Positions 2,947 through 36,364 of a DNA stretch of 64,000 nucleotides are shown here, one piece after another. The number at the start of each line of letters is the position of its first letter. Position 1 is the stretch's first letter. The notes under the pieces are model-generated. The model saw only the letters and a program-made list of their open reading frames with translations. It ran no database searches and was not told the DNA's origin. The stretch covers positions 1 through 64,000 of IMG/VR virus record IMGVR_UViG_3300005460_000001. The stretch is one strand, 5' to 3'. This DNA is from an uncultured virus (IMG/VR IMGVR_UViG_3300005460_000001) (Duplodnaviria > Heunggongvirae > Uroviricota > Caudoviricetes). The translations under genes and the position numbers were made by a program.

Positions 2947-3201
2947 GTGGAAGTTAAATATATGATTAGATTAAATAATGGCGGTACCTATAATAGTAGT
3001 TTAGACCTATATAAAATAACAGAAGAGAGTAATAACTATTCTGTTATGATAAAAATAGCAATTGCTAGTAGGAATACCTCTAGCGTGAAAGATAATCCGT
3101 TGATTTCACGCGCTGTATGTTTTTATAAATCAGTTGGATCTAAATACGGGAATGTGTTATTCTATAGGACTCGTCTTATAGAAGCTAAAAAATATGTTTA
3201 A
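2947..3201 (+). CDS. hypothetical protein, possibly frameshifted (may continue to 3325)
   Basis: GGAGG RBS; an adjacent open frame after an A6 run ends in an ATGA overlap with the 3322 gene. Confidence 0.5.
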   Translation: MEVKYMIRLNNGGTYNSSLDLYKITEESNNYSVMIKIAIASRNTSSVKDNPLISRAVCFYKSVGSKYGNVLFYRTRLIEAKKYV

Positions 3202-3321
3202 CCAATATACCGTATTTATAACTCCAGAATTAGAAGATGCAAATGTCAATAAGTTAACCAAAGTCGATATTATAAATCTATTTAAAGATATTATTTATAA
3301 TGCTTATGAGGAGGTATATGA

Positions 3322-4757: not shown

Positions 4758-6599
4758 ATGGTTATTAAAGATAGAGTTAAAAAACCTGGGCATGGTAAAA
4801 CTTTTATAAAAAATAAAACCATTAGAAAACTTCCTATAAATTTTGATATAGAAAGTTTAAATCTTATGTGTACTTACGTTCTTACTAATAATAGGAGTAT
4901 TAAGCGTGGTGCATATATAAATATGAGAAATCTAATTGAGCTTCTTGATTTAGATAGATATATTCACGACCAAGAAAGATATAAGAGAATATTATTTATC
5001 AAAAAGGGCATAGAGGCTAGATTAGAAAGACAACTTACTGACCCTGTAGCTATCATTAAATATATTAATGGTGGATTCATGGAGAGTGATATTGTAGACA
5101 TTAATAATTTCATAGAAATGTCTACTGGAGAAATAGAATGGATAAACGAAACTGTAAGTAACACATTATCTTGCTCGTTTTTATATGAGAGGGCAGAAGA
5201 GGGAATTGATATCTTAACGAGGCTATTGGCAGCAGAAGCATCAAATATAAATTCCGTATTCATAGAGGCGAAGGAATATTTTAGGGATATTAATAATAGA
5301 TTTAGGAAAAATGATAGTGTTAATTCAACTGAGAAAACCTTTAACCTCGGAGAGGAGAGTTTTAAGAGCGTATTAGCTGATGTTTATGACACATTGAATA
5401 GTAAGTTTAGATATCTTGTAACTGGTATGCAAGGATTTAATCAACTTATCGGAGGAGGATTTGAAAATACAAGATGCTATTTATTATTCGGTCTTACTGG
5501 AGTTGGTAAATCTTTATCTATGCTGAATATAGCATATCAGATGAAGAAGTATAATAAAGGATTCAAACCCAAGGACCCAACAAAACGCCCATGTATAGTG
5601 TTTCTTACTATGGAAAACGATGTTACCGAAACAATCCAAAGATTATTTACTATAGCAACTGGAGAAGATATTAGAAATCACACTCTCGAAGAAGTAGAAA
5701 TGCTTCTCAGAACGCAAGGAGAACTTTACCTTAGTGATGATTCACCAATAGATTTGATAATTAAGTATAAACCAAATAGGTCTGTTGATACCGGATATCT
5801 TTATACATTAGTAGAAGATTTAGAGGATGAGGGTTATGAAACTATATGCTTATTCCAAGATCATGTAAAAAGAATTAGATCAGTAGCAGGGAATACCGAT
5901 TTAAGACTTGAGCTCGGTGATGTAGTGAATGAGATGAAAACGTTTGCTATTCTTAAGGATATTCCTGTAATAACTGACTCACATTTGAACAGGGAAGGGG
6001 CCAAAATTATAGATGAAAAATCTACAAGAGCTACAATGGATTTGACTAGAATGCTTGGAAAGTCTAATGTAGGAGAATCTTTATTGATGCTTGATAATGT
6101 AGATTTAGGTATAATTCTCAATAAGGAATTTGATGCCGAAGGCAATGAGTATATGGCATTTAAGAATATTAAGCAAAGAGTAAGGACTTATAGAGATTAT
6201 ATCTGCCAACCGTTCCATAAAGATAATTCTATTAAATTAATAGAAGATTTCTATAGCCCAGTTCCAGTATTTAAGGAAAGTTTATATACTGTAGAATCCA
6301 CATTAAATACATCTTATCATAATGATAAAGTCAAGACAAATGGGTATTCTACGAATATTAAATCCATTGATGACGGCGAGGATAATATATTTGAATTCTC
6401 CACTGTATATTCATCAGAAGACGTAAAGAAGATGCAAGAGCAACTTACAATACCAGAAACTAATCAAAGTTCTAACTTAATTGATTATACCAATCCTTAC
6501 ATGCAACAAAATATCCAAATGCCGCTGCAACCTATGCAGATTATGTATAATCCGCAGTTAGATGAGGTCGAATTGATAAGAGGTATGATATATGAATAA
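4758..6599 (+). CDS. dnaB: DnaB-like replicative helicase
   Basis: LVTGMQGFNQLIGGGF, Walker A GLTGVGKS, FLTMEN, QDHV and SHLNR motifs of SF4 helicases; Q-rich tail ending in RGMIYE. Confidence 0.85.
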   Translation: MVIKDRVKKPGHGKTFIKNKTIRKLPINFDIESLNLMCTYVLTNNRSIKRGAYINMRNLIELLDLDRYIHDQERYKRILFIKKGIEARLERQLTDPVAIIKYINGGFMESDIVDINNFIEMSTGEIEWINETVSNTLSCSFLYERAEEGIDILTRLLAAEASNINSVFIEAKEYFRDINNRFRKNDSVNSTEKTFNLGEESFKSVLADVYDTLNSKFRYLVTGMQGFNQLIGGGFENTRCYLLFGLTGVGKSLSMLNIAYQMKKYNKGFKPKDPTKRPCIVFLTMENDVTETIQRLFTIATGEDIRNHTLEEVEMLLRTQGELYLSDDSPIDLIIKYKPNRSVDTGYLYTLVEDLEDEGYETICLFQDHVKRIRSVAGNTDLRLELGDVVNEMKTFAILKDIPVITDSHLNREGAKIIDEKSTRATMDLTRMLGKSNVGESLLMLDNVDLGIILNKEFDAEGNEYMAFKNIKQRVRTYRDYICQPFHKDNSIKLIEDFYSPVPVFKESLYTVESTLNTSYHNDKVKTNGYSTNIKSIDDGEDNIFEFSTVYSSEDVKKMQEQLTIPETNQSSNLIDYTNPYMQQNIQMPLQPMQIMYNPQLDEVELIRGMIYE

Positions 6600-6837: not shown

Positions 6838-6869
6838 TTATATATTATATATTAGAGGAGGAGTGCTAA

Positions 6870-12377: not shown

Positions 12378-13148
12378 ATGATGAACAATTTCTTTGGACA
12401 AACTGGTTTTCCGAACTCAGGGTATGCGTATCAATTCACGAATCCCGCAATGAAGAAGCCAGTAGGTACGAACCCTTTGACTGATGAGGATGTAAAATTC
12501 TTGGCGCAGAAAGCGCCTTCATTTTCATTATCAGTTTCGAGGGAAGAATCTTTGCAGGCAATCTGCACACACCGGGTTGGTGGAGAAGATAGGCTCCGCC
12601 AGAACCAGGACGGGTCTTATACCTGTATGATTTGCGGAGCTACATTCCGTATGGCTGATCTGAGCCAGGATGCTGTCAATACTACTGTCGATGGGGTAGT
12701 CGACCTTCTTGAGACAACAAAGGTAATGTATAGAGACATTCCTGATGCAGTTTGTAAAGCATTCTTCCAGATGATACCATTCCTTAAGAAAACAAAGCAG
12801 ATGTATAAGATCGCGAATGACCACTTCGGACAGTATGGTGCGGCTATCAATAGCAACCAGTTCGGAGGAGGAAATGCGGCAGTATTATTGGCCGGTCTTA
12901 TGGGCGGTGGATTTGGAGGATACACACAGCCCGGTGCAGCTAGTTATGGAGGATGGCCAGGTGCCATGAATATGGGTCAAACAATGGACCCAGCGCAGCA
13001 GGCTCAGGCCCAGGCAGCGCAAGGACAGGCAGCACAGCCGAATGCAAACAATGTAAACTTCTTTGACGCAGAGTCACCAATTGCAGGGTCAGCAGCGCCT
13101 AATGCATCCGCTTCTGATGTTGTAGACAATAAGCAGTATACTCTGTAA
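12378..13148 (+). CDS. Zn-binding protein with G/Q/N/A-rich low-complexity C-terminus
   Basis: CTH...CMIC putative Zn site; GC-richer codon usage; AGGAGGT RBS; terminator downstream. Confidence 0.8.
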   Translation: MMNNFFGQTGFPNSGYAYQFTNPAMKKPVGTNPLTDEDVKFLAQKAPSFSLSVSREESLQAICTHRVGGEDRLRQNQDGSYTCMICGATFRMADLSQDAVNTTVDGVVDLLETTKVMYRDIPDAVCKAFFQMIPFLKKTKQMYKIANDHFGQYGAAINSNQFGGGNAAVLLAGLMGGGFGGYTQPGAASYGGWPGAMNMGQTMDPAQQAQAQAAQGQAAQPNANNVNFFDAESPIAGSAAPNASASDVVDNKQYTL

Positions 13149-13206
13149 AATTATTGGGTTAGGGTGGTTTCACTCTAACCCATTTTATTTTTTAAGGAGA
13201 AAGGTT

Positions 13207-14204: not shown

Positions 14205-16571
14205 ATGCCTAAAGAATTAACTGAAGAACAAATTCAAGCCATACAAAACTATGGAGATGAATTAATAACTATTGAAAACTTCGTTAAAGTAGTGCAAAAA
14301 CGTCCTGGTATGTATCTTGGGTCTATTGGTAATAGTGGATTTATGGATATGGTGAGAGAGGTTTTTGATAACGGATATGATGAACTTAATAGAATTAAAT
14401 CTCCATGCGATTGTGTGATTGTTTCTATAGATGAAAGAAATTATACTATTATAGTTGAAGATAACGGAAGAGGTATACCATTCGGTGAGATGATAAGAGT
14501 ATTTACCGAGCAGCATACCTCATCAAATTTCGAGAAAGAAAGAAATAGCGGAGATTATTCTTCTGGTCTACATGGAGTAGGAGCAAAGGTAACAAATGCT
14601 ATGTCTACAAAGTTTATTGTAGAATCATATAATGTGATATTAGGAGAAGGCCGTTTAGTAGAATTTAACAACGGAATCCCATGGGATAAGGGAGAGGTAA
14701 AAATTCCTAATAAAGAAGGGAAGCAGGGGACTAAGGTTACCTTCACTCCAAACGTTGATTTACTTGGAGAAATTACTGTATCATGGGTTGACATATTAAA
14801 TATGATTCGAGACCATATGCCATTATCTAAAATAGGCTCTAAAGCTGTTGTAAATGCTATAGACATAAATGGTAAATCTCATAGAGAAGTCATTGTTAAC
14901 GAAGATGGTATATTGGAGTTACTTATCAATATGACCAGTACTCCTCTCGTTTATCCTGTGAAATTGTTTAAAGACACAGGTGAAATGAAAATGGATATAG
15001 TATTCACTTATAGCATTGAAGAGGAGTCGGATGCTAATGTGGTTTCTTTTGCCAATATGTGTCCTACCATATCTGGATACCATATAGATGGATTTTTAGA
15101 TGGAATATCTAAGTTCTTTTGTGACTATATGAATAAGATTTACCTTTCTAATGGGCCAGATAAAAAGAAGAAAAAGAAAAAAGAGATAAGAGTAACTCCT
15201 ACTGATGTAAAAGTAGGGTTAAAGGCTGTGGTAAACGTAGCCCATATTGAACCAATTTTTAACGGTCAAGCTAAAAAGATTTTTGCATCCGAAGATATGT
15301 ATCCATTTATGAAAGCAGAAATCCAAACTCAGTTAGAAGAGTGGGCAAAGTCTAACCCCAAAGATTTCAGTAAAATTTGTAAATATCTTAAAGATATTGC
15401 TGAACTAAGAATGAAGCAAGATAAGGAAAAGGTTAATCTTAATAAAAAATATAATTCTAATGCCCTTACTGGGCTTCCTAGTAAGTATGTTGCCCCATTA
15501 GATAAGAAGGGGGATTTAGAATTATGGATTACTGAAGGGGATTCCGCTGGAGGGACTTTAGAAAACAATCGAGATAATCACACTCAAGGATATTTCCCAA
15601 TACGTGGTAAATTGCCTAATGCATTCTTTACTCAAAAAGATAAGTTTCTTAGTAATGCTGAGGTTGCTGGAATTATCAATATTATCGGTGGAGGATATGG
15701 GCGTTCATTTGATATAACAAAAGTAAAATTTTTAAAGATTGTTATAAACAGTGATGCAGATGCAGATGGAGATCATATCTGTTGTTTATTATTGTCATTC
15801 TTTATATTGTATATGCCTGGTTTGGTAGAGTCTGGAAGGGTATATCGTGCTGTTCCACCATTATACGGAATTACAATAAAGTCTAAGAATATATACTTCA
15901 CTCGAAAGATAGACTACATTAAATATGTACAAAAGCTATTCATAAAGGATAACGATATTAAGTACGGAGATGGAAAAACTATATCCCAAACTGACCTTAC
16001 AAAGTTATTATACTCGAATATAGATTATGTATACGAGATAGAAAGGATATCAAATCGATATGCAGTTTCCCCAGAGTTACTTGAAACAGTTCTGATGTTG
16101 CATTTAGCTAAGGCCGATTACAACAAGATGAAGAGAGATATAGAGAAAAAATATAGATTTCTTAAAATAACTAATCAGAACGGCGTGCCAATGATTACCG
16201 GTTCCTTAGATTTAGCTATTCAGACATTATTCGTGACTGATGTGTTAATAAAGGATTGCTCAAGGATTATAAATATTCTTGTAAGCAATGCTAATGTGTC
16301 CTTTATGGTTAACAATAACAAAGTATTGTTGTATGGATTAATGAAAGGATTTGATGAATCTAGTCCTAAAAATTTAAGAAGGTTTAAAGGACTTGGAGAG
16401 ATGGATGGTCCATCATTATACGAATCTACAGTTAATAAGAATACGCGTACGCTCATTCAGTTTACCACAGAAAATATTAAAGATACCATTGAGAGCATCA
16501 GGTACTACGAGAATAATAAAGATAAGCTTCTTGAGGGTATAACAGTATCTAGATTTGATGTAATAGGATAA
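14205..16571 (+). CDS. gyrB: type IIA topoisomerase (gyrase) subunit B
   Basis: RPGMYLG, EVFDN, DNGRGIP and GLHGVG (GHKL ATPase); TEGDSAG, PIRGK and DADADGDHI (TOPRIM); RFKGLGEM. Confidence 0.95.
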   Translation: MPKELTEEQIQAIQNYGDELITIENFVKVVQKRPGMYLGSIGNSGFMDMVREVFDNGYDELNRIKSPCDCVIVSIDERNYTIIVEDNGRGIPFGEMIRVFTEQHTSSNFEKERNSGDYSSGLHGVGAKVTNAMSTKFIVESYNVILGEGRLVEFNNGIPWDKGEVKIPNKEGKQGTKVTFTPNVDLLGEITVSWVDILNMIRDHMPLSKIGSKAVVNAIDINGKSHREVIVNEDGILELLINMTSTPLVYPVKLFKDTGEMKMDIVFTYSIEEESDANVVSFANMCPTISGYHIDGFLDGISKFFCDYMNKIYLSNGPDKKKKKKKEIRVTPTDVKVGLKAVVNVAHIEPIFNGQAKKIFASEDMYPFMKAEIQTQLEEWAKSNPKDFSKICKYLKDIAELRMKQDKEKVNLNKKYNSNALTGLPSKYVAPLDKKGDLELWITEGDSAGGTLENNRDNHTQGYFPIRGKLPNAFFTQKDKFLSNAEVAGIINIIGGGYGRSFDITKVKFLKIVINSDADADGDHICCLLLSFFILYMPGLVESGRVYRAVPPLYGITIKSKNIYFTRKIDYIKYVQKLFIKDNDIKYGDGKTISQTDLTKLLYSNIDYVYEIERISNRYAVSPELLETVLMLHLAKADYNKMKRDIEKKYRFLKITNQNGVPMITGSLDLAIQTLFVTDVLIKDCSRIINILVSNANVSFMVNNNKVLLYGLMKGFDESSPKNLRRFKGLGEMDGPSLYESTVNKNTRTLIQFTTENIKDTIESIRYYENNKDKLLEGITVSRFDVIG

Positions 16572-16591
16572 AGTTAATTATTCTAAAGATC

Positions 16592-16687
16592 AAATTTAAT
16601 CTCATATCTTAAAATAATCTAAATTAAAATATAATAATCTTATACGTTGAATGAATCTAGATAATAAAATCTTAATCTAAATCTATG
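16592..16687 (+). repeat. orphan, partly degenerate TIGR-like dual-repeat array (~2.5 units)
   Basis: AATCT ends at 16602, 16620, 16640, 16658 and 16678 (18/20/18/20 spacing); same repeats as the array at 18622. Confidence 0.7.
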
Positions 16688-16696
16688 ATTGTAGCG

Positions 16697-16735
16697 GGCT
16701 AGGAGAATATTCTCCTAGCCTATATTTTATTTTTT
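16697..16735 (+). terminator. intrinsic terminator after gyrB and its array
   Basis: GGCTAGGAGAATATTCTCCTAGCC palindrome followed by a T tract. Confidence 0.75.
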
Positions 16736-16827
16736 GTGAAATTGCTTATTTTTGACCATATAATATTTAAGTGAATAAGAAATTCTATATTCAATAAAAA
16801 TATTAAAATCTAAGGAGGAAACCAAAA

Positions 16828-16962
16828 ATGAAAGAAACAAAAGAAAGAAAAACAAGAAATGCAGAAGAAGAAGTTAGACAAGCAATTTTGCTGGGGGCTA
16901 TGATTTTAAACTCGGCGTCTAACGTAAAAACCTATGTTCCTGCGGTAAAGTTGGCTAAGTAA
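16828..16962 (+). CDS. small hypothetical protein (44 aa, not in the ORF track)
   Basis: AAGGAGG RBS; MKETKERKTRNAEEEVRQAILLGAMILNSASNVKTYVPAVKLAK*. Confidence 0.6.
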   Translation: MKETKERKTRNAEEEVRQAILLGAMILNSASNVKTYVPAVKLAK

Positions 16963-17029
16963 ATTAAAAACTAAATAAAGAAAAAGACATTTAAAACATA
17001 ATAAGACTAAATAAATGGAGGATTAAAAA

Positions 17030-17425
17030 ATGAAAAATGCTGTAGCAAGAATGAATCTCGTAGCAAATATCGGAACCAATTTCGGAGAGAAGAATGCTTC
17101 TCTGGTTAGGCAGATGATTAACCGTATGCAGCCGCACTTGTATGATAGATTACCGTGTGTGTATGAAGATTCGTATTATGTGTATTGTCAGAAACGATTC
17201 TTAAACAAAGTAGCCGGCAGAGGAGTAAAGATGCTGGTTGTCTATGTTGATGATATTGATTGCTTGGTATATGAAGCATTCAAAATTACAAAGAAGCTCT
17301 GCGACAGATTCAATATCAAATTGGTGGCATTTAAATGGAATGAGAAGTTGAATAGCTTTGAGAGATTCAATACTATGATAGAAGATCTTGAAACTATAAA
17401 GAGATCGAATTATAAGGTAAATTAA
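17030..17425 (+). CDS. hypothetical protein upstream of the Tas-like gene
   Basis: 131-aa ORF, GGAGG RBS. Confidence 0.8.
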   Translation: MKNAVARMNLVANIGTNFGEKNASLVRQMINRMQPHLYDRLPCVYEDSYYVYCQKRFLNKVAGRGVKMLVVYVDDIDCLVYEAFKITKKLCDRFNIKLVAFKWNEKLNSFERFNTMIEDLETIKRSNYKVN

Positions 17426-17501
17426 CAATAATGAATCTCAGGGGCTCAATCAATGAATTTGAGCCTCTTAACTTTATTTTATACAGAAAGGTTATAAAAA
17501 G

Positions 17502-18617
17502 ATGAAAAAAAATTTAAATGAAATACACGAAGTAGGAACTGCTGAATATGAGGCTACTGGATTAGCGAAGATTTCTAAATCTGTAAAGGAGTCTATGGTT
17601 TATATTACTAAAGAGCAAATTAAAGCTATGGTTGACAGGGTTTACCAAGCTCAGCACGACAGGATTGAGTTGGAAGCGCAGCTTAAGGCGATTAACCAGG
17701 GAAGAGATAAAGATTCTGATACTGTAAAGAAAGCCGAAAAGAAGAATACTATAACTGCTATGGAATGGCTCTGTCAAGATGCTGCAAACAGAGAAGCGCA
17801 GATTAAGGAAATGCTTAACGAGTATTGTAAAAGCGAGCCAGTTTGCGTTTGGGCTATGCAGATAAAAGGTATTGGGCCCGTAATAGCTTCATACCTGTGG
17901 GCACATTTAGACTTGAACAAATGCAACAGTGTCGGAGCTTTTCACTCTTATGCTGGTTTAAACGATAATAATAACCCATGGTTAGGTGTAGAAAAGGCCA
18001 CAACTCTTGTTAAAGAGGTTTATGAGGAGTTGGGATATGACAAGAAGCATGAAGCAGATGAGCGCGTGTTAGCTGCAGTTTCGGAGAAGACCACTCGTCG
18101 TCCGAACATCATATCGAATGGCATTAATGTAGCTAAAAAGTCCAACAAGAAAAAGAAACTAACGGATATGGAGGCACTGATTAAATATCTTTCTAAGCCA
18201 CCATATAATGAAGATCTGAAGACAATGTGTTGCTTTAAGATCCCTCGATTGTCGTTTGCGATGAATTGCAATCGCGGTTCTTTATATGGGGAATTATATA
18301 AAGAAAGAAAGGCATATGAAGAACGTAAAAACAAGAATTTAGAATATGCTGATCAGGCGGCTGCTGTTTTGAAGAGAAGAAAAAAATATCTCAAAAAGAA
18401 GGAAATAAAAACCCTAGAGTCTGGAATGTTGTTGGATTCACATATCACCACTCGGGCGTTAAGGAGATCAGTAAAAATCTTCTTATCTCATTTTTGGGAA
18501 TGCGCTTATCGATATGAGCACAAGTCTAATAACAGAGCTCCATTATATGTCATGGACATTGCAAAGCATAAAGACTATATAGAACCTGAAGTTCCATTCC
18601 CGGATTTTAGCAAGTAA
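17502..18617 (+). CDS. Nop/IS110(Transposase_20)-domain RNA-binding protein, TIGR-associated TasA-like (no RuvC/HNH)
   Basis: N-terminal coiled coil; WAMQIKGIGPVIASYL..LD...SVGAFHSYAGL, PYNEDLKT, YGELYKERKAYE and HITTRALRRSVKIFLSHFW; no DEDD RuvC domain; dual-repeat array starts 5 nt after the stop. Confidence 0.85.
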   Translation: MKKNLNEIHEVGTAEYEATGLAKISKSVKESMVYITKEQIKAMVDRVYQAQHDRIELEAQLKAINQGRDKDSDTVKKAEKKNTITAMEWLCQDAANREAQIKEMLNEYCKSEPVCVWAMQIKGIGPVIASYLWAHLDLNKCNSVGAFHSYAGLNDNNNPWLGVEKATTLVKEVYEELGYDKKHEADERVLAAVSEKTTRRPNIISNGINVAKKSNKKKKLTDMEALIKYLSKPPYNEDLKTMCCFKIPRLSFAMNCNRGSLYGELYKERKAYEERKNKNLEYADQAAAVLKRRKKYLKKKEIKTLESGMLLDSHITTRALRRSVKIFLSHFWECAYRYEHKSNNRAPLYVMDIAKHKDYIEPEVPFPDFSK

Positions 18618-18621
18618 CCGT

Positions 18622-18811
18622 ATTGAATCTATGTTTCAGAATTATAATCTTCGCGGGAAAATGAATCTTAGGTTCTATATAGTAATCTGTTTTCGCGTAT
18701 GAATCTGCGGCATTAAATTTTAATCTTGTTGGCAGAATGAATCTTATGTATGATATAGTAATCTGTTCTCGTGTATGAATCTGCGGCATTAAATTTTAAT
18801 CTTGTTGGCAA
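18622..18811 (+). repeat. TIGR-like dual-repeat guide-RNA array, 5 units of 38 nt
   Basis: alternating nATGAATCT (9 nt) and nATWDTAATCT (11 nt) repeats separated by variable 9-nt spacers (10 nt if n is counted as spacer). Confidence 0.88.
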
Positions 18812-18820
18812 AAGGTTTAA

Positions 18821-18869
18821 ATAAATATAGGCTGAGAATAATAAATTTCTCAGCCTATATTTATTTTTT
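18821..18869 (+). terminator. intrinsic terminator closing the tas-array transcript
   Basis: AAATATAGGCTGAGAA...TTCTCAGCCTATATTT followed by ATTTTTT. Confidence 0.75.
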
Positions 18870-18916
18870 GTATTATATATTATATTTATGATTATCTATG
18901 AAAGGAGGAGGTTATA

Positions 18917-19303
18917 GTGTACAATGGAGACGTTTGGTATATGATACCTGGATTTAATGGATATGAGATAAACGAGGACAAAGTAGTAAGGTCTATGAAA
19001 AGATTTAACGCAGTACCAGGATATCTTATTAAGTTATATAAAGGAGGTTATTATGAACTCTCTGATAACCATTGTAAAAGGGTTAGAAAAACTCCTGATG
19101 AACTGTGGGATTTAGTTCAGGAGCAAATAAAAAATTCTAAAGCACAGGTTCGTGTACGCGAAGATTATCATAATCACATAAGTAGTAGAAACAAATTTAA
19201 AAATTTTTATCCTGAATCTATAGAAGAAGACAAATCATCTCCAGGCTTGAAAAGGGGGTCCGATGATAGATTTTATATGGATTTTTCAGGATTAATGAAT
19301 TAG
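18917..19303 (+). CDS. NUMOD4-like domain protein (no intact HNH)
   Basis: DVWYMIPGFNGYEINEDKVVRS matches the NUMOD4 pattern; GTG start after AAGGAGGAGG. Confidence 0.6.
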   Translation: MYNGDVWYMIPGFNGYEINEDKVVRSMKRFNAVPGYLIKLYKGGYYELSDNHCKRVRKTPDELWDLVQEQIKNSKAQVRVREDYHNHISSRNKFKNFYPESIEEDKSSPGLKRGSDDRFYMDFSGLMN

Positions 19304-19314
19304 GAGGATGGAAA

Positions 19315-19622
19315 GTGAAAAAGGAATTCGTAGAAAGAAAGGTTTACAATAATGTGATACCTGTAAAATTGGTTTCATCGTCAGTACCCATTTTGCTATA
19401 ATGATTATATAAATAGGATAGAGAGGGCGCGAAATACAAAAAGTCTTCTTGATAATTATTTAAAATCATTAGGATTGTGTTATAAACAAAACAGGAAATG
19501 AGTATATTATCCATGATGATGGAAAATTATATTGTGATTATTATAAAAACACCAAAATAGAGGATTATGAATATGAAATTGGCAAAATATACGATTTGGC
19601 ATCGGCAATAACTATACATTAA
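19315..19622 (+). pseudogene. probable frameshifted gene remnant
   Basis: AGGAGG plus GTG start followed by three short successive open frames that fill the gap before gyrA. Confidence 0.35.
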
Positions 19623-19645
19623 TTTTATAAAGGAGATGTAGATAA

Positions 19646-22036
19646 ATGCCAGAAACGATAATACAACAAGATGCTGCTGTATCACATAAGAATAGTATGG
19701 GGAACTATGCCATTGAAGTTAACCTTAGAAGATCAACTCCAGATGCAAAGGATGGATTGAAATTAGTTCATAGGCGTATATTGGACGTCATGTTTAATGA
19801 TGAACCTTGTGCTGAGAAGTTAGTAAAAACGTCTGCAGTTGTAGGTACTACGATGAAAAAGTCCCATCCGCACGGAGATGCTTCTATAGGAGATGCTATT
19901 AAACCGATGGTAAACTGGTGGGAGATAGGAATACCGTTAATAGATACAAGGTCGAACTATGGTAATTTCCACGGTAAAGGAGCAGCAGCACCTCGATATA
20001 CAGAGATAAAATTATCACAATTCTGTTTGGATTGTGTAATTGGGGATTTAAGAAAATCCAAAAATATTGTAGATTGGGTAGATACTTTTGACTATAGGGA
20101 TAAAGAGCCAGAATATTTTCCGGTAAAAGTCCCGTTGCTATTAATAAATGGAACATTTGGTATTGGGGTTGGTATTAAAACTGAGATTCCTAAGCATCCT
20201 ATTAATGAAGTCATAGATGCAACTCTTAGAGTTATAGAAGACCCGTCTGCCCCAGTGGTGTTGGTTCCCGACACTTGTATGCCATGTGAAATAGTAGAAG
20301 CGAATTGGAAAAAGATTTGCAACACTGGACATGGAAAGTATAAAGTAAGAGGTATTATTGATATTGAACAGAATAAAGATGGTTCATATTCACTGATAAT
20401 AAAGTCAGTCCCAGATAGAGTATATTTCGATAGAGGGAATGCTGAGAATGGTGGCGTTAAATATGTCATACTTAAAATGGTAGAAGAGAAGAAACTTCCT
20501 CAAATAATGAGTATTGACATAGATTCCAAAGGAACAGATATGAGAATAATCATCCGTCTAAGAAAAGGAGCGGACCCCAATTTTGTGAGGGATATGATTT
20601 ATAAAAACACTCAGATGGAAAGCCCATATAGTGTTAACTTTGAAACTCTAGATGGAATCAAACCCCTCAGGATGTCATATAAATCTTATATTGAGTTCTT
20701 TATAGAACAAGCAAAGACGAACAAGTTTAGACTATACGCCAATAAGCTTCAAAAGGCAAATACTCGATATCATAAGATAACCTCTTATATAGAGATATTA
20801 AAATCAGATAAGCTTCAGGAAATGCTCAAAGTAATGCAGACAATGAAGGAAATAAACGATAAAGCATTGATGGAAAAATTAATTAAGAAATTCGGCATTA
20901 GCGATATTCAAGCAGAGTTTTTAATTAATTCAACTTATAAGACTTCGTCAATAGCATATCGTTTATCATATGAGAAAGAGGCAAAAGCATTAGAAGAGGA
21001 TATTAAGCATTTCATTGATATGATTACTATTGATGAATTGATTATTCAAGAGATAGTAGATGAGCTCAAATATTTTAAGAAGAAATATGGACAGCCTAGA
21101 CGAAGTAAAGTTATAAAGATTAAAGACCTATCTCATATACCAGAAGGGCAATTTAATATCGTCATAACCGAAGCCGGGTTCGTCAGAAAATTATCTCCTT
21201 TTGATGCTGTTAATAACATTAAAGGAGATGCTCCTAAGCATGTTATGACTGTAGAGAATACAGAGAATATATTGTTGTTTACAGCATCTGGTAAGGTATT
21301 TAATGTTCCAATACACAAGATTCCGGTAACGGAAAAAAGTGGAGTAGGAACTGACTTAAGATTACTAGTAAAAGGATTAGTCAGTGATATAGTGGAAATC
21401 ATGTATCTTCCCATGGTGAAAGAACGTGCTAATGATGCTAAGAATAAATACTTTATAATGACTCTTACCGAAGGTAATTGTATAAAGAAAATGGATTTAG
21501 ATGATTTTCTTAATGTGCCGCCATCTGGAATCTTATTCACAAAGATTAATTCTGGTGATAGAGTTATTGATGTAAAAATCGTGTCTAAGGATTCTGATAT
21601 AATAGTATGGTCAGATAGGAAGGCTTTACGTATGAAAGCTGAATCTGTTCCTCACTTCAGAAGAAATACTTTAGGCGTTGGCGCTATGAGTGGTAAAGAT
21701 CATATTGATGGATTTACTGAAGTTCGTAAAGATATTACTGATGTCTTAGTAATAACTAATTCTGGAAGGGTTAATCGATTTGATATTATAGGGTTGCCGT
21801 TATCAGATAGATATAAAGCCGGCTCCAATGTGGTTAAACTAGGAAAAACTGATAGTATACATTCTATACTATGCTGTAATTCAAATGATATGGTACTAGT
21901 CACTTCTAAAGTTGGAGACACAGAATATCCCGTGAGTTCTATAAAGACGGGCTCTAGTATATCTGCTGGAGAAAAAGTAATACCTCTGAAAAATGATGTA
22001 ATATTAAAAACAAAAATTCTCAGTAACCCGAACTAA
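19646..22036 (+). CDS. gyrA: type IIA topoisomerase (gyrase) subunit A
   Basis: DGLKLVHRR, HPHGD, GNFHG..AAAPRYTE (catalytic Tyr) and LLINGTFGIGVG; C-terminal beta-pinwheel repeats. Confidence 0.95.
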   Translation: MPETIIQQDAAVSHKNSMGNYAIEVNLRRSTPDAKDGLKLVHRRILDVMFNDEPCAEKLVKTSAVVGTTMKKSHPHGDASIGDAIKPMVNWWEIGIPLIDTRSNYGNFHGKGAAAPRYTEIKLSQFCLDCVIGDLRKSKNIVDWVDTFDYRDKEPEYFPVKVPLLLINGTFGIGVGIKTEIPKHPINEVIDATLRVIEDPSAPVVLVPDTCMPCEIVEANWKKICNTGHGKYKVRGIIDIEQNKDGSYSLIIKSVPDRVYFDRGNAENGGVKYVILKMVEEKKLPQIMSIDIDSKGTDMRIIIRLRKGADPNFVRDMIYKNTQMESPYSVNFETLDGIKPLRMSYKSYIEFFIEQAKTNKFRLYANKLQKANTRYHKITSYIEILKSDKLQEMLKVMQTMKEINDKALMEKLIKKFGISDIQAEFLINSTYKTSSIAYRLSYEKEAKALEEDIKHFIDMITIDELIIQEIVDELKYFKKKYGQPRRSKVIKIKDLSHIPEGQFNIVITEAGFVRKLSPFDAVNNIKGDAPKHVMTVENTENILLFTASGKVFNVPIHKIPVTEKSGVGTDLRLLVKGLVSDIVEIMYLPMVKERANDAKNKYFIMTLTEGNCIKKMDLDDFLNVPPSGILFTKINSGDRVIDVKIVSKDSDIIVWSDRKALRMKAESVPHFRRNTLGVGAMSGKDHIDGFTEVRKDITDVLVITNSGRVNRFDIIGLPLSDRYKAGSNVVKLGKTDSIHSILCCNSNDMVLVTSKVGDTEYPVSSIKTGSSISAGEKVIPLKNDVILKTKILSNPN

Positions 22037-27398: not shown

Positions 27399-27814
27399 TA
27401 CTAATGCGAAGGAGTGTAAGATTACAGATGATAAAGGTACCAGCAAGCAAGATTAAAGAAATAAAATATGATGGTAAAAATTTATTATTTATATCTACCG
27501 GATTTTTTGATATTGTTATAGCTGTTTCTGGAAATCCAAGTACAATTAAGAGTGTTTTGGCATTGAGAGAAAATAAATGTATGACTATTTGTGCTACTAT
27601 GGGTATAAATAAAATCGAAGTAAGGCTAAACGATGGGCCTGTCCCAAAGTCCGTTTCCATGGAAGATTTTAAGTTTATGTATGCATCTACAAAAATAAGG
27701 ATTTCTACTAATGAAATTCTTATGCATAGTGAATTCTATGGAGAGATAATAGATCCAACTCTTAGTATTTCTTTAAAGGAGGAAAACGGAGAATTAGTAA
27801 CCATATTAAAATAA
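27380..27814 (+). CDS. hypothetical protein
   Basis: 144-aa ORF; true start may be downstream, near AAGGAG. Confidence 0.7.
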   Translation: MGMDRIILMRRSVRLQMIKVPASKIKEIKYDGKNLLFISTGFFDIVIAVSGNPSTIKSVLALRENKCMTICATMGINKIEVRLNDGPVPKSVSMEDFKFMYASTKIRISTNEILMHSEFYGEIIDPTLSISLKEENGELVTILK

Positions 27815-27836
27815 TAAAAAGAAAAGGAGAACAATT

Positions 27837-28283
27837 ATGATTCATGGTATGTATAACACAACAAGAACTAAGCTTAGCATTAAGAGAGGTAGATTTTTTG
27901 GAAAGATCAAGGTGAAACTCGAATGTAGGCATATCCTTACGGGCTTAAAGACCGATATTATTTTCTACTCATTGGCATCAAAGAGATCAATCGATAGTAT
28001 CAGCAGTCGGGTTAGTGAAAACAATCCTTCGGCTAAAGGAGACAGCATTAGCATCCTTGGGTCGGTTACAATTAACGTTGTAGACACTTTTTATGGAAAA
28101 CCTTTTGGAGTTCTGCGCATAAATCCATGTAAGAAAATTAATTTACTTGGGCTAAACGATATTACGGTTTTGGATTTTGAAGACCGCAAACCTGTCAAAG
28201 ACAGCGAAGGATTCTTATTCCGGTTAATGCTTAATAATAAAAATTGTGCAGGAAAATTAGAAGATCTGATAATCGAAGGTTAA
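27837..28283 (+). CDS. hypothetical protein
   Basis: 148-aa ORF, AAGGAG RBS, terminator downstream. Confidence 0.75.
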   Translation: MIHGMYNTTRTKLSIKRGRFFGKIKVKLECRHILTGLKTDIIFYSLASKRSIDSISSRVSENNPSAKGDSISILGSVTINVVDTFYGKPFGVLRINPCKKINLLGLNDITVLDFEDRKPVKDSEGFLFRLMLNNKNCAGKLEDLIIEG

Positions 28284-28392
28284 CAAAAAGGAAGAGGGAC
28301 AGAAATATGCTGTCCCTCTTTTATTTATAATTGTAGTAAAATAAAAATAGTTATACATATAATTGATAGAAAATAAAGCATAGTGCTAATAA

Positions 28393-28464
28393 TGGGCATT
28401 CGCCAAGAGGTAAGGCACGGGACTTTGACTCCTGAATTCGTTGGTTCGAATCCAATATGCCCAG
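28393..28464 (+). tRNA. tRNA-Gln(TTG)
   Basis: acceptor TGGGCAT/ATGCCCA, anticodon arm CGGGA-CTTTGAC-TCCTG, GGTTCGAATCC T arm; CCA not encoded. Confidence 0.9.
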
Positions 28465-28837
28465 TTCGGCTGAGTGGGTTAATCTCTGCCGAATCGTTGT
28501 CGGTAATTGCTGGGGGGCAGTAACGATACCGGCCTATGGTGCACGGCCGCTAAGAAAAGCCGGCAGTATCTGCGTAGAATGCAGGGTGCGGCTATGGCGG
28601 TTAGAGTACAGCAGTGCTATACCAAAATGTAATGAGTGTTAATCGTGTAGCGATTGGGGTTAGAGCTCGCTCCGAAAGAGAATCGCAGTGTAAGTGTTAA
28701 CACCTGCTCCGCAAGTGGCGGTAATTGAATGGTAATGTGTAAGACTCAGCACTGAATCAAAAGAAAAGAGTCTGAGATATAGCTCGCCGAGAGAGGCAAC
28801 AGCAGATGCAGTTAGCATACGTTGGCGATCTTAACCC
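28465..28837 (+). ncRNA. putative large structured ncRNA between tRNAs
   Basis: GC-rich ~370 nt with many hairpins; 5' GGGTTAA can pair with 3' TTAACCC; no credible RBS-led ORF. Confidence 0.6.
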
Positions 28838-28912
28838 GGGCCATTAGCTCAGCTTGGTTAGAGCAACCGGCTCATAACCGGTCGGTCATAGGTTCGAGTC
28901 CTATATGGCCCA
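28838..28912 (+). tRNA. tRNA with CAT anticodon, probably tRNA-Ile2 (lysidine type)
   Basis: GGGCCAT/ATGGCCC acceptor, ACCGG-CTCATAA-CCGGT anticodon arm, GGTTCGAGTCC; body resembles Firmicute tRNA-Ile2. Confidence 0.88.
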
Positions 28913-29030
28913 TCGAAATCGGGTTTTTGGTTTCCTTATTATTTCTGGGTGTCGGTAATCCGGCACCCGGATTATTTTTTCTCCTTAAACATTACATTAA
29001 TATACGCATTACATAAGGAGGAATTATAGT

Positions 29031-29453
29031 ATGCTTTTAAGAAATGAAAGTCGAGTTAGGCATTTTGTGGAAATTAATTTGACATATGATGATAAGGAAA
29101 GTAATAATCTAATAGTTAATGAAGGAGATAACGTAGCTATCAGTTTTAGAAAAAATGGAAGGATAGCTATGGGAGAAGGAAAGATTACAGAAATAAAGGT
29201 GCAGCATAGAGCAAGATGTAACGGTTTTGGAATGAAGGAAACTGCCATCTTAGAAATAGATATGTCTGGTGATTGCAATTCACAAACTGAAAGTGTTGAT
29301 ATACGAGATATAATAGACATTAGAAAATTAGTTCCAAAGCATTGTCATAAATGCGATAAAGTAGATCCTAGCTTTATAGTTAAGCCTAAAGATAAAGATA
29401 CGATTGGAGTGGTCGGGATGCCAATATCTCCAGGGGGTGTAATAGGTGAATAA
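29031..29453 (+). CDS. hypothetical protein (paralogous to 59275..59898)
   Basis: 140-aa ORF, AAGGAGG RBS, AACA-N6-TA at 28988. Confidence 0.75.
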   Translation: MLLRNESRVRHFVEINLTYDDKESNNLIVNEGDNVAISFRKNGRIAMGEGKITEIKVQHRARCNGFGMKETAILEIDMSGDCNSQTESVDIRDIIDIRKLVPKHCHKCDKVDPSFIVKPKDKDTIGVVGMPISPGGVIGE

Positions 29454-30153
29454 AAAGCAAAGAGAAGAAATAGAAGAACTTATAATAAGTTCTTTTAATA
29501 TCTTGGACAAATCTGGTACTAATTCAGAGTATTACAAAGATTTGTTTAGTAAAATGAGTGATTCTCAATTTCATTCATTTATTGCAAAGAAATATCCTGG
29601 TAAATTTTATTATCGCCCATCAGTTACTGAACCTACGATGGATGACATAGAAGAAGCATTGAACTTTATTGGTGTTCCCTTAAGCGAGAAGATTAATATG
29701 CCTTGGGTTTATGAGGATAAGGATGGAAATCCAGTGCAGTCTAAAGAATGTACAGTTGTATATTTACATCATAAAAAGGTCCAGCAATTCATAACAAAGA
29801 AAAATAAATGGGCTATTTCTGTATCTAACAGAGATATGAAGGGTGGGCGCTTAATTGGAGCAGATAAAGGTGCTGTAACATCAGATAGAGAATTTGAATC
29901 TATGGAAGTTCAGTCTATGAATAATACCGTTGACGAGTTCTCTACGTTTAGGGCGGACTCTATGAAGTCTAAGAATATGGCTAATGCAATAATTGGGACT
30001 ACCGGTGTATTACATTTAGATGATGTAAAGGTAGATAAAGATGATTTCCTATCTAAGAACCTAATGAGTGCTTATATGATTGGAGCCCATTTGAATACGA
30101 ATATCGTAAATGAGGGTAATTATACTCCGACTACATTAAGATCGAAATCTTAA
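29446..30153 (+). CDS. putative RNA polymerase beta C-terminal fragment (second, probably virion, RNAP)
   Basis: CTVVYLHHKKVQQFITKKN...KGAVTSDREFESM resembles the beta 'VGxMYxxKLxH...GxRFGEME' region. Confidence 0.5.
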   Translation: MNKKQREEIEELIISSFNILDKSGTNSEYYKDLFSKMSDSQFHSFIAKKYPGKFYYRPSVTEPTMDDIEEALNFIGVPLSEKINMPWVYEDKDGNPVQSKECTVVYLHHKKVQQFITKKNKWAISVSNRDMKGGRLIGADKGAVTSDREFESMEVQSMNNTVDEFSTFRADSMKSKNMANAIIGTTGVLHLDDVKVDKDDFLSKNLMSAYMIGAHLNTNIVNEGNYTPTTLRSKS

Positions 30154-30196
30154 TATTTTCATTTATATATTATATTTTTGAAGGAGGTGAGTATAA

Positions 30197-30423: not shown

Positions 30424-31662
30424 ATGAATGTAAAATGTATTGGTATTGGAGCCGCAGGAAATAAGGCGGCAATTACTCTGGTGGAAAAGAAAGTACTGGC
30501 ACAGGATAATGTATTATTAATCAATTCTACATTAAAGGATATCCCTGCAGATTACAAGGGGCTGGCTGTGGAATATGTTAATTCTTATGGCGGCTGCGGG
30601 AAAGAAAGAAAAAATGCGTATGATCTTGCAGTAAACTCCATTAAGGCTGGAAAGATCCCGCTGGATGATTTTCTCAATATTGGAAAAAGCAATGAGGCGG
30701 AGCTGGTAATCATTGTAACTTCAACTGAAGGCGGTACAGGTTCTGGTTCATCAATTATTATTGGTAAGTATATTAAGAGCCATTACGACATCGATGTGCA
30801 TATGTTCGGATTTGTTGGGTTCAAGACCGACCCAAGGGGTCTGAAGAATACAGTAGAGTGGTTTTCGGAGCTGCAGGAAGATTTTGCGGTGGAAGCTGTT
30901 GAGAACAGCAAGTACTTACCAGAATGCCGTGGAAACAAGATCAAAGCAGAGAAGATGGCGAACGAAGACTTTGCTAACAAGATTGGCATTCTGATCGGAA
31001 ATACAATCAGATATTCAGAGCACAATATCGACCCGACTGATCTTCTTAAAGTGTCTGCAAAGCAGACTGGATTTATGGTAATTGAATCTGCGAATTTTGA
31101 GAAGATCAAAAACAAAGAACAGTTCGAGGCGATGGTTGTCCGTATGATTGACGATAGCAAATCAGTTGATGTGAGCAATGTTAATGCTAAGAAATCTGCG
31201 GTGTTCCTGAATATTAGTCCGGCTTCTACTGATTTTATCTCTTATGAAGAAATCATTACCGAGAGGTATGGGGAGAGATATGAGAATTACGAGCATATTC
31301 AGCACGAAGCTGATATGCCAGAGTTCTTTGCGATTATCATTGCTGGTATGAAAATGCCGGTAGAAGAAATCCAAAGAGTATATACCGAATATAAAGACCG
31401 CATGGGGCAGGTTGACCGTTCAGGAGACGACTTCTTTGCATCTGTAAGTGCATTGTCGTTCGATGATGATGATGATCTGTCGATCCATGGCAAAAAGAAA
31501 AAGACTATGAGCGACGATGAGTTCTTTGCGAATCTCGATAAACCAGTTGATTCTCCGTCTGCTTCAACAAAAGTCGTGCGGCCATCTGCTGAAGGGAGTG
31601 AGTCCAGTGGGAAATTCTCTAATGTAAGAGTAGAGAAAGCAGACATCGCAAAAGAATATTAG
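30424..31662 (+). CDS. tubulin/FtsZ-family GTPase (PhuZ/TubZ-like)
   Basis: IGIGAAGNKA, LLINST, GGCGK and the GGTGSG tubulin signature, NIDPTD; acidic disordered tail. Confidence 0.9.
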   Translation: MNVKCIGIGAAGNKAAITLVEKKVLAQDNVLLINSTLKDIPADYKGLAVEYVNSYGGCGKERKNAYDLAVNSIKAGKIPLDDFLNIGKSNEAELVIIVTSTEGGTGSGSSIIIGKYIKSHYDIDVHMFGFVGFKTDPRGLKNTVEWFSELQEDFAVEAVENSKYLPECRGNKIKAEKMANEDFANKIGILIGNTIRYSEHNIDPTDLLKVSAKQTGFMVIESANFEKIKNKEQFEAMVVRMIDDSKSVDVSNVNAKKSAVFLNISPASTDFISYEEIITERYGERYENYEHIQHEADMPEFFAIIIAGMKMPVEEIQRVYTEYKDRMGQVDRSGDDFFASVSALSFDDDDDLSIHGKKKKTMSDDEFFANLDKPVDSPSASTKVVRPSAEGSESSGKFSNVRVEKADIAKEY

Positions 31663-34053: not shown

Positions 34054-34156
34054 AGTATATGGGAGATGCCTCACCGAGGCATCTCTCGAAACAATTCATT
34101 TGAATATATATTATATTCATGAAATAAAATACGAATGAAAGAGGGACGAAAATACT

Positions 34157-36364
34157 ATGCAAAATTTTCATGAAATTATGGAAAAAGAATCTGAACGAAT
34201 AAGCTCGCTTGAACAGGTTCTCGGTAAAGGACTATACCAACCGTTTTCAATATCTAATTCTGGTTCCAGAAAAGTATTGTTTAGTACCCAGTTGGACCAC
34301 TCCATCCCGTTGCTTAATCCGGAAATTCCAATAATTTCTACAGGATATGAAAACAAGTATGGAGATTACTCAGCATCTATTATTAAGATGGATGATGATT
34401 ACGAGGTAATAAAGAAAATTTCTAAGTTTTCTCGTATTCCTAATCATCAGTATTTATTAATAATAAAAAATAAGAATACTGGTCAATTAGATGTGTTAGA
34501 GAGAATCATGTACAAGAACAAAACTGAATCTTATGGGTATCTATATGATACTAAAATAATGGATGAATTAGACGAAGGGTATACTATTAGAAAAGGAGAG
34601 ACGGTAAGGTCATCTAAAGCGTATGACGGATATATGAATCGTTGCGATGGAGTGAATCTCAAAGTGTCATATATATGCCAAGACAAAACTATGGAAGATG
34701 GCATCAGAGTTTCTCAATCTGCAGCTATTAAATTATCTTCTCCATTTATTAAGAAAATCCCCCCAGTATTTCTTAATGATAATGATATACCTCTTAACTT
34801 ATATGGAGATAGCGATACGTATAAATGCTTCCCAGATATAGGAGAGAAAGTTAATGGTGGATTGGTATTTGCTACAAGAAGAGAAAATCAGGACGATATT
34901 TTATATACGCAATCAATAGAAATGCTCAAACAGGTATTAATGAGCGATTCAAAGTATATAGTATCTGGGGATTCAGAGATAATTGATATAGATATCCAGA
35001 CGAATAATCCAGATATGCTTGGAAAGTTTCAGAATAGCCAGTTAAATTATTACTATGAGGAGAAACAAAGATACCTGTTTGAAATTATAACTACAGTAGA
35101 ATCCCTTGCGGCAAAAGGAGATAACTATATATCATATGAATTAGAAAAGTTGTATGTTGAAGCCAAAAGACAATTTCAGAATACAGAGTATTTATATGAT
35201 AAAACATTCTCTGGCACCATGTTAGAGATTACCATACTAGAAAGAAACATTCCATCTGTAGGAGATAAACTTTCTAATAGATATGGAGGAAAAGGAGTAA
35301 TATCCGAAATAGTATCCGATAATCTAATGCCCATAGATAAGGATACCGGGAAGGCAGTAGATATTTCATTTAATAGTTCCACATGTGTAAACAGATTAAA
35401 TGATGGGCAATTGAAAGAACAGTCTTTGACCCATATAGGCTCTAGAATTATCCAGTATATAGTACAATCTGGAATGGTACAAAATACGGATGCAGCTCTA
35501 GCACACATTGTAAAATTTGTTTTATTATGTTCTCCTCTTTATGGTAGAGTGTTGGATAGCATGATATTAGAGATGAGTGATGAAGACAGAGATATTTATC
35601 TTCAAAATATAATAGACAGTGGTTATATTGCTTTGTGTATCAAGCCGGCTAGTGAAAACCTGACCCTGGATCAATTAGATGTGATTTATAAAGAGTTCCC
35701 GTATGTTAAGCAAAGAGAAATGATGGTGCCTATAAAGGATAGTAATGGTAATATAAGATACGTACCATCTAGACGTCGTATAGTGGTTGGAGATATGTAT
35801 ATCTACAGATTGAAACAATATGCGGAAGAAAAATTCTCAGTAACAAGTTTATCATCTGTGAATATTAGAAATGAAAATACAAGGTCTAAGCTTTCAAAGA
35901 ACTATAAGAGTTTGCACTCTAATACTCCTATTAAGTTTGGAGATATGGAAAGTAATGATCTAGGCCATGCTGGTATTGAAAATGTATTAGCTATACTGAT
36001 GATTCATTCAGTGTCTCCACAGGCAAGAAGATTAGTTTATGAAATGCTTACAGATGACCCATACAATATTGATATACGACTCTCGGACAATGCGGTAAAC
36101 CGTACAGCACAAATAGCAAATATATATCTTAAAACAATGGGATATCGTCTAAAGTTTATCAAGATCAAAAAGAAGATACTCCATGGGTTATATAAAAAGG
36201 GTATGGTATATCATTGGGGAGATAAAGAGCTTCCTCGCGGCATGACTTACATCAGTGACGAAGAAGAGTATGATTTCGATAAGAATTATCAAAGAATGCT
36301 TGAAGCCGAAGAAGAGTTTGCTAAACGAGGAATGGTATACGAAGGTATGCATTATGAACCATAA
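34157..36364 (+). CDS. rpoB: multisubunit RNA polymerase beta subunit, C-terminal part (split)
   Basis: MEDGI, VGDKLSNRYGGKGVIS, VGDMYIYRLKQ and KFGDME. Confidence 0.9.
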   Translation: MQNFHEIMEKESERISSLEQVLGKGLYQPFSISNSGSRKVLFSTQLDHSIPLLNPEIPIISTGYENKYGDYSASIIKMDDDYEVIKKISKFSRIPNHQYLLIIKNKNTGQLDVLERIMYKNKTESYGYLYDTKIMDELDEGYTIRKGETVRSSKAYDGYMNRCDGVNLKVSYICQDKTMEDGIRVSQSAAIKLSSPFIKKIPPVFLNDNDIPLNLYGDSDTYKCFPDIGEKVNGGLVFATRRENQDDILYTQSIEMLKQVLMSDSKYIVSGDSEIIDIDIQTNNPDMLGKFQNSQLNYYYEEKQRYLFEIITTVESLAAKGDNYISYELEKLYVEAKRQFQNTEYLYDKTFSGTMLEITILERNIPSVGDKLSNRYGGKGVISEIVSDNLMPIDKDTGKAVDISFNSSTCVNRLNDGQLKEQSLTHIGSRIIQYIVQSGMVQNTDAALAHIVKFVLLCSPLYGRVLDSMILEMSDEDRDIYLQNIIDSGYIALCIKPASENLTLDQLDVIYKEFPYVKQREMMVPIKDSNGNIRYVPSRRRIVVGDMYIYRLKQYAEEKFSVTSLSSVNIRNENTRSKLSKNYKSLHSNTPIKFGDMESNDLGHAGIENVLAILMIHSVSPQARRLVYEMLTDDPYNIDIRLSDNAVNRTAQIANIYLKTMGYRLKFIKIKKKILHGLYKKGMVYHWGDKELPRGMTYISDEEEYDFDKNYQRMLEAEEEFAKRGMVYEGMHYEP

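Follow-up and report, generated by a model that had tools for sequence, protein, structure and literature searches.

Extra stable RNAs in phage tRNA clusters are a long-known phenomenon, of which rnaC and rnaD of bacteriophage T4 are the classic case. In Firmicutes, RNase Z acts on tRNA precursors without an encoded CCA end by cleaving after the discriminator base, and RNase P removes the 5' leaders; the extra stable RNAs of the T4 tRNA cluster arise by the same RNase Z/RNase P route. We know of no function for either of the two T4 RNAs. The T4 genome record (NC_000866) lists both as small stable RNAs, 'species 1' and 'species 2', with rnaC at 70908-71046 (139 nt) and rnaD at 71053-71171 (119 nt), and they are found directly beside tRNA-Arg at 71173-71247. 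In Staphylococcus phage K (Kayvirus), abundantly transcribed long non-coding RNAs are located near tRNA genes, as described in an excerpt of the published account (PMC9241854). The large GOLLD and ROOL RNAs, whose function is given as unknown in the excerpted survey that describes them, are also often found near tRNAs, in prophages and phages (PMC5737381).

The window analyzed here, which comprises the first 64,000 nucleotides of a 129-kb virus record, is from an uncultured mouse-gut jumbo phage that is AR9/PBS1-like and carries multisubunit RNA polymerase genes. Matches to the PHROG collection include RNA polymerase beta subunit fragments (29446-30153 and 34157-36364), both topoisomerase II subunits, a PhuZ-like tubulin, a UvsX-like recombinase and an NAD-dependent ligase. 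Among named phages, AR9/PBS1-like jumbo phages of Bacillus, Staphylococcus and Listeria come closest, with protein identities of 33-41%. The tubulin/PhuZ-like ORF of 412 aa (30424-31662; phrog_4733, E = 2.7e-5; Pfam Tubulin 26 bits, below cutoff) lies two genes downstream of the tRNA unit and fits a phage that builds a nucleus-like compartment or spindle. The topoisomerase II subunit genes (14205-16571 and 19646-22036) are about 3 kb apart, and a transposase-like ORF of 371 aa lies between them (17502-18617; phrog_4285, E = 2.5e-26). The three long intergenic gaps in this interval (16572-17029, 18618-18916 and 19304-19645) have no Rfam match at gathering score, and 16572-19645 as a whole may be an inserted mobile element with an RNA of its own.

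ARAGORN identifies exactly two tRNA genes in the 64-kb window, Gln(UUG) and a CAU tRNA called as Met (Table 1). As the first ends at 28464 and the second starts at 28838, the interval 28465-28837 constitutes the complete 373-base gap between them, and this interval is referred to below as the element. An earlier reading made from the sequence only (the sequence-only reading) had noted that the element abuts both tRNAs exactly, and the ARAGORN and Rfam boundaries, on the same strand, confirm this. The acceptor stem of the CAU tRNA in the window carries the pairs C4-G69 and C5-G68, which in E. coli mark tRNA-Ile2 (lysidine) and not elongator tRNA-Met. We read the element as a non-coding RNA private to this phage lineage that RNase Z and RNase P would release, a parallel in context to T4 rnaC and rnaD, and our confidence in this reading is evenly balanced.

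Table 1. Features of the tRNA-element-tRNA unit and contigs placed on it; positions are those of the window, and element positions count from 28465.
Feature	Position	Strand	Evidence or remark
Intrinsic terminator of the upstream gene (ORF 27837-28283), left border of the unit	28290-28322	+	13-pair stem, T-rich tail
TATAAT hexamer, possible -10 of the unit	28358-28363	+	Read from the sequence
tRNA-Gln(UUG)	28393-28464	+	ARAGORN; Rfam tRNA, 60.5 bits; CCA not encoded
Candidate RNA, 373-nt GC-rich element	28465-28837	+	GC content; no Rfam or Pfam match; RNA-library contigs
5' hairpin TTCGGC/GCCGAA (element 1-6 with 24-29)	28465-28470 with 28488-28493	+	Sequence
Possible closing helix, 5' strand GGGTTAA (element 12-18)	28476-28482	+	Not above chance
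Possible closing helix, 3' strand TTAACCC (element 367-373)	28831-28837	+	Final base adjoins the tRNA; not above chance
Two-tier hairpin GUCGGUA/UACCGGC and UUGCUG/CAGUAA, GGGGG loop (element 35-69)	28499-28533	+	Mean pair probabilities 0.90 and 0.85
Three-tier hairpin (element 82-137)	28546-28601	+	Pair probabilities 0.66-0.89; z = -2.7, stretch picked post hoc
GCGATT/AATCGC stem enclosing CTC-CGAAA-GAG	28650-28686	+	z = -0.27; both strands pair elsewhere in the MFE fold
Long hairpin, core AGACTC/GAGTCT (element 267-320)	28731-28784	+	Pair probabilities 0.73-0.91
GCC-GAGAGA-GGC hairpin (element 322-333)	28786-28797	+	Pair probability 0.92
tRNA(CAU), called Met	28838-28912	+	ARAGORN; Rfam tRNA, 70.4 bits; CCA not encoded
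Intrinsic terminator closing the unit	28944-28971	+	12-pair stem, 8 GC pairs, then TTATTTTTTC
Contig X19, 339 nt	28492-28828		RNA-Seq metatranscriptome, study P15
Contig X20, 378 nt	28488-28840		RNA-Seq metatranscriptome, study P15
Contig X15, 368 nt	28378-28745		Another study; RNA label a guess
Contig X14, 596 nt	28288-28883		DNA; 3.7-kb and 2.0-kb contigs continue into the flanks

The composition of the element sets it apart from its surroundings. It had been described as more GC-rich than the genome, and this is the case (about 50% against 34% GC): in 200-base windows its GC content is 0.45-0.55, compared with 0.28-0.40 in the flanks, and the island at 28376-28975 has a GC content of 0.493 against a mean of 0.340 for the 129-kb virus record. 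The GC content of the element is at the level of the neighbouring tRNAs. Two other GC-rich islands were checked in the 129-kb record and both are within ORFs, one at 12451-13150 inside an ORF at 12378-13148 and one beyond the window, at 104076-105950, inside an ORF of 681 aa. This 681-aa ORF (about 104064-106109; L077 1565-3610, minus strand) is ~51% GC in a 34% GC genome and may be a recently acquired gene. The element shows no coding signal; the ORFs found in it are only 41-61 aa long and none of the three has a Pfam match, and on the tRNA strand it is an ORF-free stretch inside the tRNA transcription unit.

Intrinsic terminators bracket the unit. One belongs to the upstream gene and forms the left border, the other closes the unit downstream of tRNA(CAU), and a terminator scan of 27800-29300 found none inside the tRNA-element-tRNA unit; the number of terminator-like sites in the scanned region was 4, compared with 1.2 +/- 1.2 in shuffles. 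The promoter scan called no sigma-70-like promoter upstream of the unit. The TATAAT hexamer, which may serve as its -10, has neither a good -35 nor a phage early-promoter motif and was not called by the scan; contig X15 begins at 28378, 3' of this hexamer. The AT-rich motif ahead of the unit does not recur elsewhere, the over-represented phage motif TTATATATTATAT is absent ahead of the unit, and no match to the AR9-type late motif, for which an excerpt of the AR9 study gives the consensus AACA-(6N)-TA/G (PMC5312081), was seen there. The motif TTATATATTATAT itself is AT-rich and intergenic and lies just 5' of genes; it occurs exactly on the plus strand at 6838-6850, 18873-18885 and 30163-30175 and with one mismatch at 34104 and 49386; allowing up to two mismatches raises the count to 49, where 32 +/- 6 would be expected. 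The motif is similar to the AR9 early-promoter consensus AAATATATATTAT-(6N)-G given in the same excerpt (PMC5312081) and is likely the promoter of the phage virion RNA polymerase.

Contigs of four runs were placed on 28200-29100. Those of the three RNA-labelled mouse-gut runs consist almost wholly of the tRNA-element-tRNA unit, with one or two differences each. Contigs of this kind give no strand, ends or abundance, and they offer a weak hint of an abundant, stable transcript. Contig ends coincide only within one study (28488/28492 against 28378 at the left, 28828/28840 against 28745 at the right). Contig X20 crosses the junction with the second tRNA and X15 includes tRNA-Gln, so the contigs could represent unprocessed forms or DNA. 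The flanks at 28200-28385 and 28944-29100 are uncovered in X19, X20 and X15 and covered in the DNA run X14, and the missing cover is not evidence.

The helices listed in the sequence-only reading are all present in the sequence, while their number and energy are no better than chance. The minimum free energy (MFE) of the plus strand is -118.2 kcal/mol, compared with -112.6 +/- 6.3 kcal/mol for dinucleotide shuffles (z = -0.90), an energy equalled or bettered by 18 of 100 shuffles; a repeat run on the whole element gave z = -1.09, and the minus strand folds better, with z = -2.03. The element has 16 perfect stems of at least 6 bp against 13.4 +/- 4.7 in 500 shuffles, and 4 of at least 7 bp against 3.1 +/- 2.3 in 500 shuffles. 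The same holds for the long-range closing helix proposed in that reading: the complementary strands exist, but the helix is at chance level and is not used in the MFE fold. Its duplex energy of -16.1 kcal/mol, against -13.5 +/- 3.3 kcal/mol, is reached by 20% of 2000 shuffles, and forcing the helix into the fold costs 2.9 kcal/mol. The 5' end of the element pairs better with element 182-213 (-23.9 kcal/mol), and the MFE fold is for this reason composed of two domains, element 1-212 and 214-368; it disagrees with the fold of the sequence-only reading by that 2.9 kcal/mol only. The 5' hairpin (1-6/24-29) and the core of the closing helix (12-18/367-373) had been viewed as competitors. They need not compete, and together they would form a pseudoknot.

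The best-determined local hairpins, with predicted pair probabilities of 0.85-0.92, are at element 35-69, 105-121, 245-257, 278-309 and 322-333. The z-scores of local hairpins, such as -2.3 for element 31-70 and -2.4 for element 264-335, range from -1.8 to -2.7 and apply to stretches that were selected after the fold had been seen. Sequence variants in the four runs were compared with these folds. The change 28684 C>T (X19, X20 and X14) would turn a G-C pair into G-U in either fold, 28649 A>G (X15) would turn a possible U34-A185 pair into U-G, and 28829 T>G (X20 and X14) would add a C20-G365 pair beside the closing helix. All three variant sites in the element thus fit pairing or are unpaired, for which the chance estimate is about one in three.

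Comparison with Rfam at gathering score identifies only the two tRNAs in the 64-kb window. A permissive scan of 28300-29000 with all 4227 families at E<=10, which covered the T-box leader and riboswitches, gave six matches, none of them inside the element; these are the two tRNAs, two antisense tRNA echoes and two weak matches at the downstream terminator. Within the reach of covariance models the element is therefore not GOLLD or ROOL (which we take to be RF01998 and RF03087), raiA, RNase P RNA, tmRNA, a group I intron, a T-box leader or tRNA-like. The hallmarks of tmRNA and RNase P RNA had been reported as missing, in agreement with ARAGORN, which calls no tmRNA, and with the Rfam scan at E<=10, which finds neither. 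A group I intron has no Rfam match and would interrupt nothing, because both flanking tRNAs are complete; a tRNA or tRNA pseudogene in the element has no cloverleaf according to ARAGORN or the Rfam tRNA model (E<=10).

The locus was compared among relatives with the RNA-polymerase fragment as anchor, for which the protein collection holds 239 relatives. The compared loci comprise 20 from IMG/VR, 1 from GTDB genomes and 38 from metagenomes, and the non-identical relatives among them have at most 68% identity; relatives of the fragment at 69-97% identity exist on Logan or ENA contigs outside the compared loci. Several of the close relatives at 64-97% identity are encoded on contigs of 225-257 kb. 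With the flanking ORFs as anchors, one identical contig only was recovered. A tRNA scan of 47 loci other than L005 (19 + 28) found an identical copy of the unit in one, the 231-kb metagenome contig L026, and the Gln/CAU tRNA pair in nine, 106-130 nt apart in eight and in reverse order 24 nt apart in one. Eight loci have tRNA-Gln only, two have a distant tRNA(CAU) only and 27 have no tRNA. Identical copies, where compared, show no difference over 6.4-7.7 kb, and the element is nearly unchanged in runs of 15 studies, nearly all of which are labelled mouse gut.

Related jumbo phages carry the same tRNA pair in the same order, 5' of the same RNA-polymerase-fragment gene, as in the window. The Gln-CAU spacers of these relatives are 106-130 nt long and AT-rich, with a terminator-like hairpin, and they cannot be aligned with the element. 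Seven loci (L009, L010, L011, L014, L042, L044 and L056) have spacers of 106-109 nt with a conserved GC hairpin and T-run directly after tRNA-Gln; in these loci, in contrast to the window, each of the two tRNAs may be transcribed on its own. In the closest relative read (L027, 68% identity), a dUTPase-like gene leads directly to the orthologue of ORF 29031-29453, and this locus has no tRNA and no GC island.

Searches for homologues of the element were made at several levels of sensitivity. Among 63 loci, blastn and nhmmer found only five identical self copies, the next best match having E = 4.9. With the whole records of five relatives as target, the strongest blastn match covered 15 nt at E = 0.28, and a further search of two sources also reached 0.28 at best. 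In its distant mode, blastn returned no match at E<=1 in 50,697 phage records and none at E<=1 in plasmid records. Two part covariance models were built with chosen local helices, R1 from element 29-160 and R2 from element 175-340. They gave no match at E<=1 in any of the five whole genomes of relatives, and in 33 sources (283,822 bases) they found themselves only, plus one match of 8.2 bits (E = 3.1); R1, the only one of the two used there, found nothing at E<=0.1 in 150 Bacillota genomes. Both are single-sequence models of an unproven structure and hence weak, and their empty results do not show absence. A pattern scan of IMG/VR with a degenerate 21-mer from the two internal repeats recovered the phage's own contig only. 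The same kind of scan with the 3' end of tRNA-Gln recovered the own contig and six contigs (34-51 kb) of other phages, which have tRNA-Gln in six of six cases, beside tRNA-Arg in five of six, and the element in none of the six. Elsewhere in the 129-kb record, no antisense match to the element is longer than 12 nt. With no homologue found by blastn, nhmmer, covariance models or pattern scans, the element is private to its lineage as far as seen.

Phage Phass-1 (L001, OQ749652), an unrelated gut phage of the code-15 clade with about 51% GC, has the tRNAs that best match those of the window, and they follow one another in the same Gln-then-Met order. Its long tRNA spacers at 3067-3286 and 5039-5321 (about 220 and 280 nt) are dissimilar to the element and match no Rfam family at E<=1; the first contains sequence resembling a tRNA T-arm and acceptor end (GGTTCAAATCC...GGGGACCA), which ARAGORN leaves uncalled.

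The evidence against a non-coding RNA is in part structural, namely the ordinary folding energy, the chance-level stems and the better-folding minus strand, and in part comparative, as relatives do without the element and have 24-130 nt of unrelated sequence in their Gln/CAU loci. A different explanation is that the element is a passive transcribed spacer or junk insert, foreign or decayed DNA between tRNA genes that has no function of its own and owes its GC content to its origin. Helices and folding energy at chance level are what such an insert would show; its absence from every relative examined, at a locus that varies between a spacer of 106-130 nt, one tRNA and none, points the same way, as does the lack of a homologue in phage and plasmid records, the whole genomes of five relatives and 150 Bacillota genomes, and at least one other GC-rich island of the same genome is possibly a foreign gene. 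Nevertheless, no source sequence for an insert was found in the phage and plasmid records, and the element has no terminator, whereas the short spacers of relatives bear a terminator-like hairpin. Its near constancy across the runs of 15 studies and the restriction of the RNA-library contigs almost wholly to the unit also argue against junk DNA, and the GC content is raised to that of the tRNAs, an enrichment that is typical of structural RNAs in AT-rich genomes. On balance we find a passive insert rather doubtful, and we rank a trans-acting phage RNA, similar in context to T4 rnaC and rnaD, above a passive spacer.

The position of the element between tRNAs allows further explanations. It could be a cis-acting leader or processing element that controls the maturation or level of tRNA(CAU): it ends exactly at the 5' end of this tRNA, its last seven bases can pair with element 12-18 and could so hide or present the RNase P site, and the terminator-like hairpin between the tRNAs of relatives implies that the coupling of the tRNAs differs between lineages. 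The fact that no known leader family matches in the Rfam scan (T-box leader and riboswitches included), that 373 nt is long for such a role and that the closing helix is not above chance makes a leader quite unlikely. Worn remains of a longer tRNA array, in the form of decayed or non-canonical tRNA genes, would account for a GC content equal to that of the tRNAs and for the 9-mer GGTTAGAGC, which is present at 28658-28666 and again at 28856-28864, in the D-loop region of the adjoining tRNA; there are also two occurrences of a similar 21-mer, and the Gln-Met spacer of the unrelated Phass-1 has a tRNA-like T-arm and ACCA end. We consider such remains very improbable, in view of the fact that ARAGORN and the Rfam tRNA model (E<=10) find no tRNA in the element, that no relative has extra tRNAs between Gln and CAU, and that the shared 9-mer and the 76% match over 21 nt are within an estimate of chance for 373 nt. 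The sequence-only reading had suggested either a new ncRNA or a short RNA akin to the large GOLLD and ROOL RNAs. The GOLLD/ROOL identity did not hold up and is now extremely unlikely: the element adjoins tRNAs in a phage genome, a setting common for GOLLD and ROOL according to the excerpted survey (PMC5737381), and this position is all that it has in common with them. None of the 4227 Rfam families matches inside it at E<=10 with permissive filters, its 373 nt compare with a mean of 581 nt for ROOL and a greater length still for GOLLD in the same excerpt (PMC5737381), and its predicted folds are unstable, with no multistem-junction or pseudoknot architecture established. The broader part of the original proposal, a non-coding RNA freed by tRNA processing, fares better than the GOLLD/ROOL identity and gains some support because terminators bracket the unit and contigs of the unit are present in RNA libraries.

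For the lineage-private RNA we propose the following route. A single tRNA-Gln/373 nt/tRNA(CAU) transcript would start after the terminator at 28290-28322 and end at 28944-28971. Host RNase Z would cut it just 3' of the discriminator base of tRNA-Gln (28464/28465), and RNase P would cleave directly before the second tRNA (28837/28838); the two cuts on this transcript would free exactly 28465-28837, as a 373-nt RNA that bears a 5' phosphate and a 3' hydroxyl. The high GC content and the local hairpins could allow the released RNA to persist. In a bolder version, the element would found a new family of large, folded phage RNAs; it would be excised precisely by RNase Z and RNase P, have its ends tied by the pseudoknot and act in trans during infection, perhaps by diverting host nucleases or defence systems aimed at tRNA, or through an RNA-only assembly of the ROOL/GOLLD kind. 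This version seems to us distinctly unlikely.

If the proposed route is true, ordinary tRNA-processing enzymes would make a product that is not a tRNA, and a 373-nt RNA in a jumbo phage with RNA polymerases of its own would offer another system for studying the role of such RNAs. The element is an orphan, of value as a lead more than as a result in itself. In comparison with the GOLLD and ROOL families, which are widespread and supported by covariation, it is known from one phage lineage only. The candidate RNA may be likened to the long non-coding RNAs of phage K, which are described in the excerpt cited above as lying near tRNA genes and being abundantly transcribed (PMC9241854). The closest parallel is T4. 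Searched with the covariance models R1 and R2, the T4 locus (L076) gave no match, so that no similarity of the element to rnaC or rnaD was detected, and the class of rnaC/rnaD-type RNAs to which we compare it is one defined by context, not homology. The T4 RNAs, of 139 and 119 nt, are at the end of a tRNA array, whereas the element, of 373 nt, is between two tRNAs, and the host and phage lineage differ. What rnaC, rnaD and the element have in common is that each is ORF-free, is on the same strand as the phage tRNAs and directly adjoins them.
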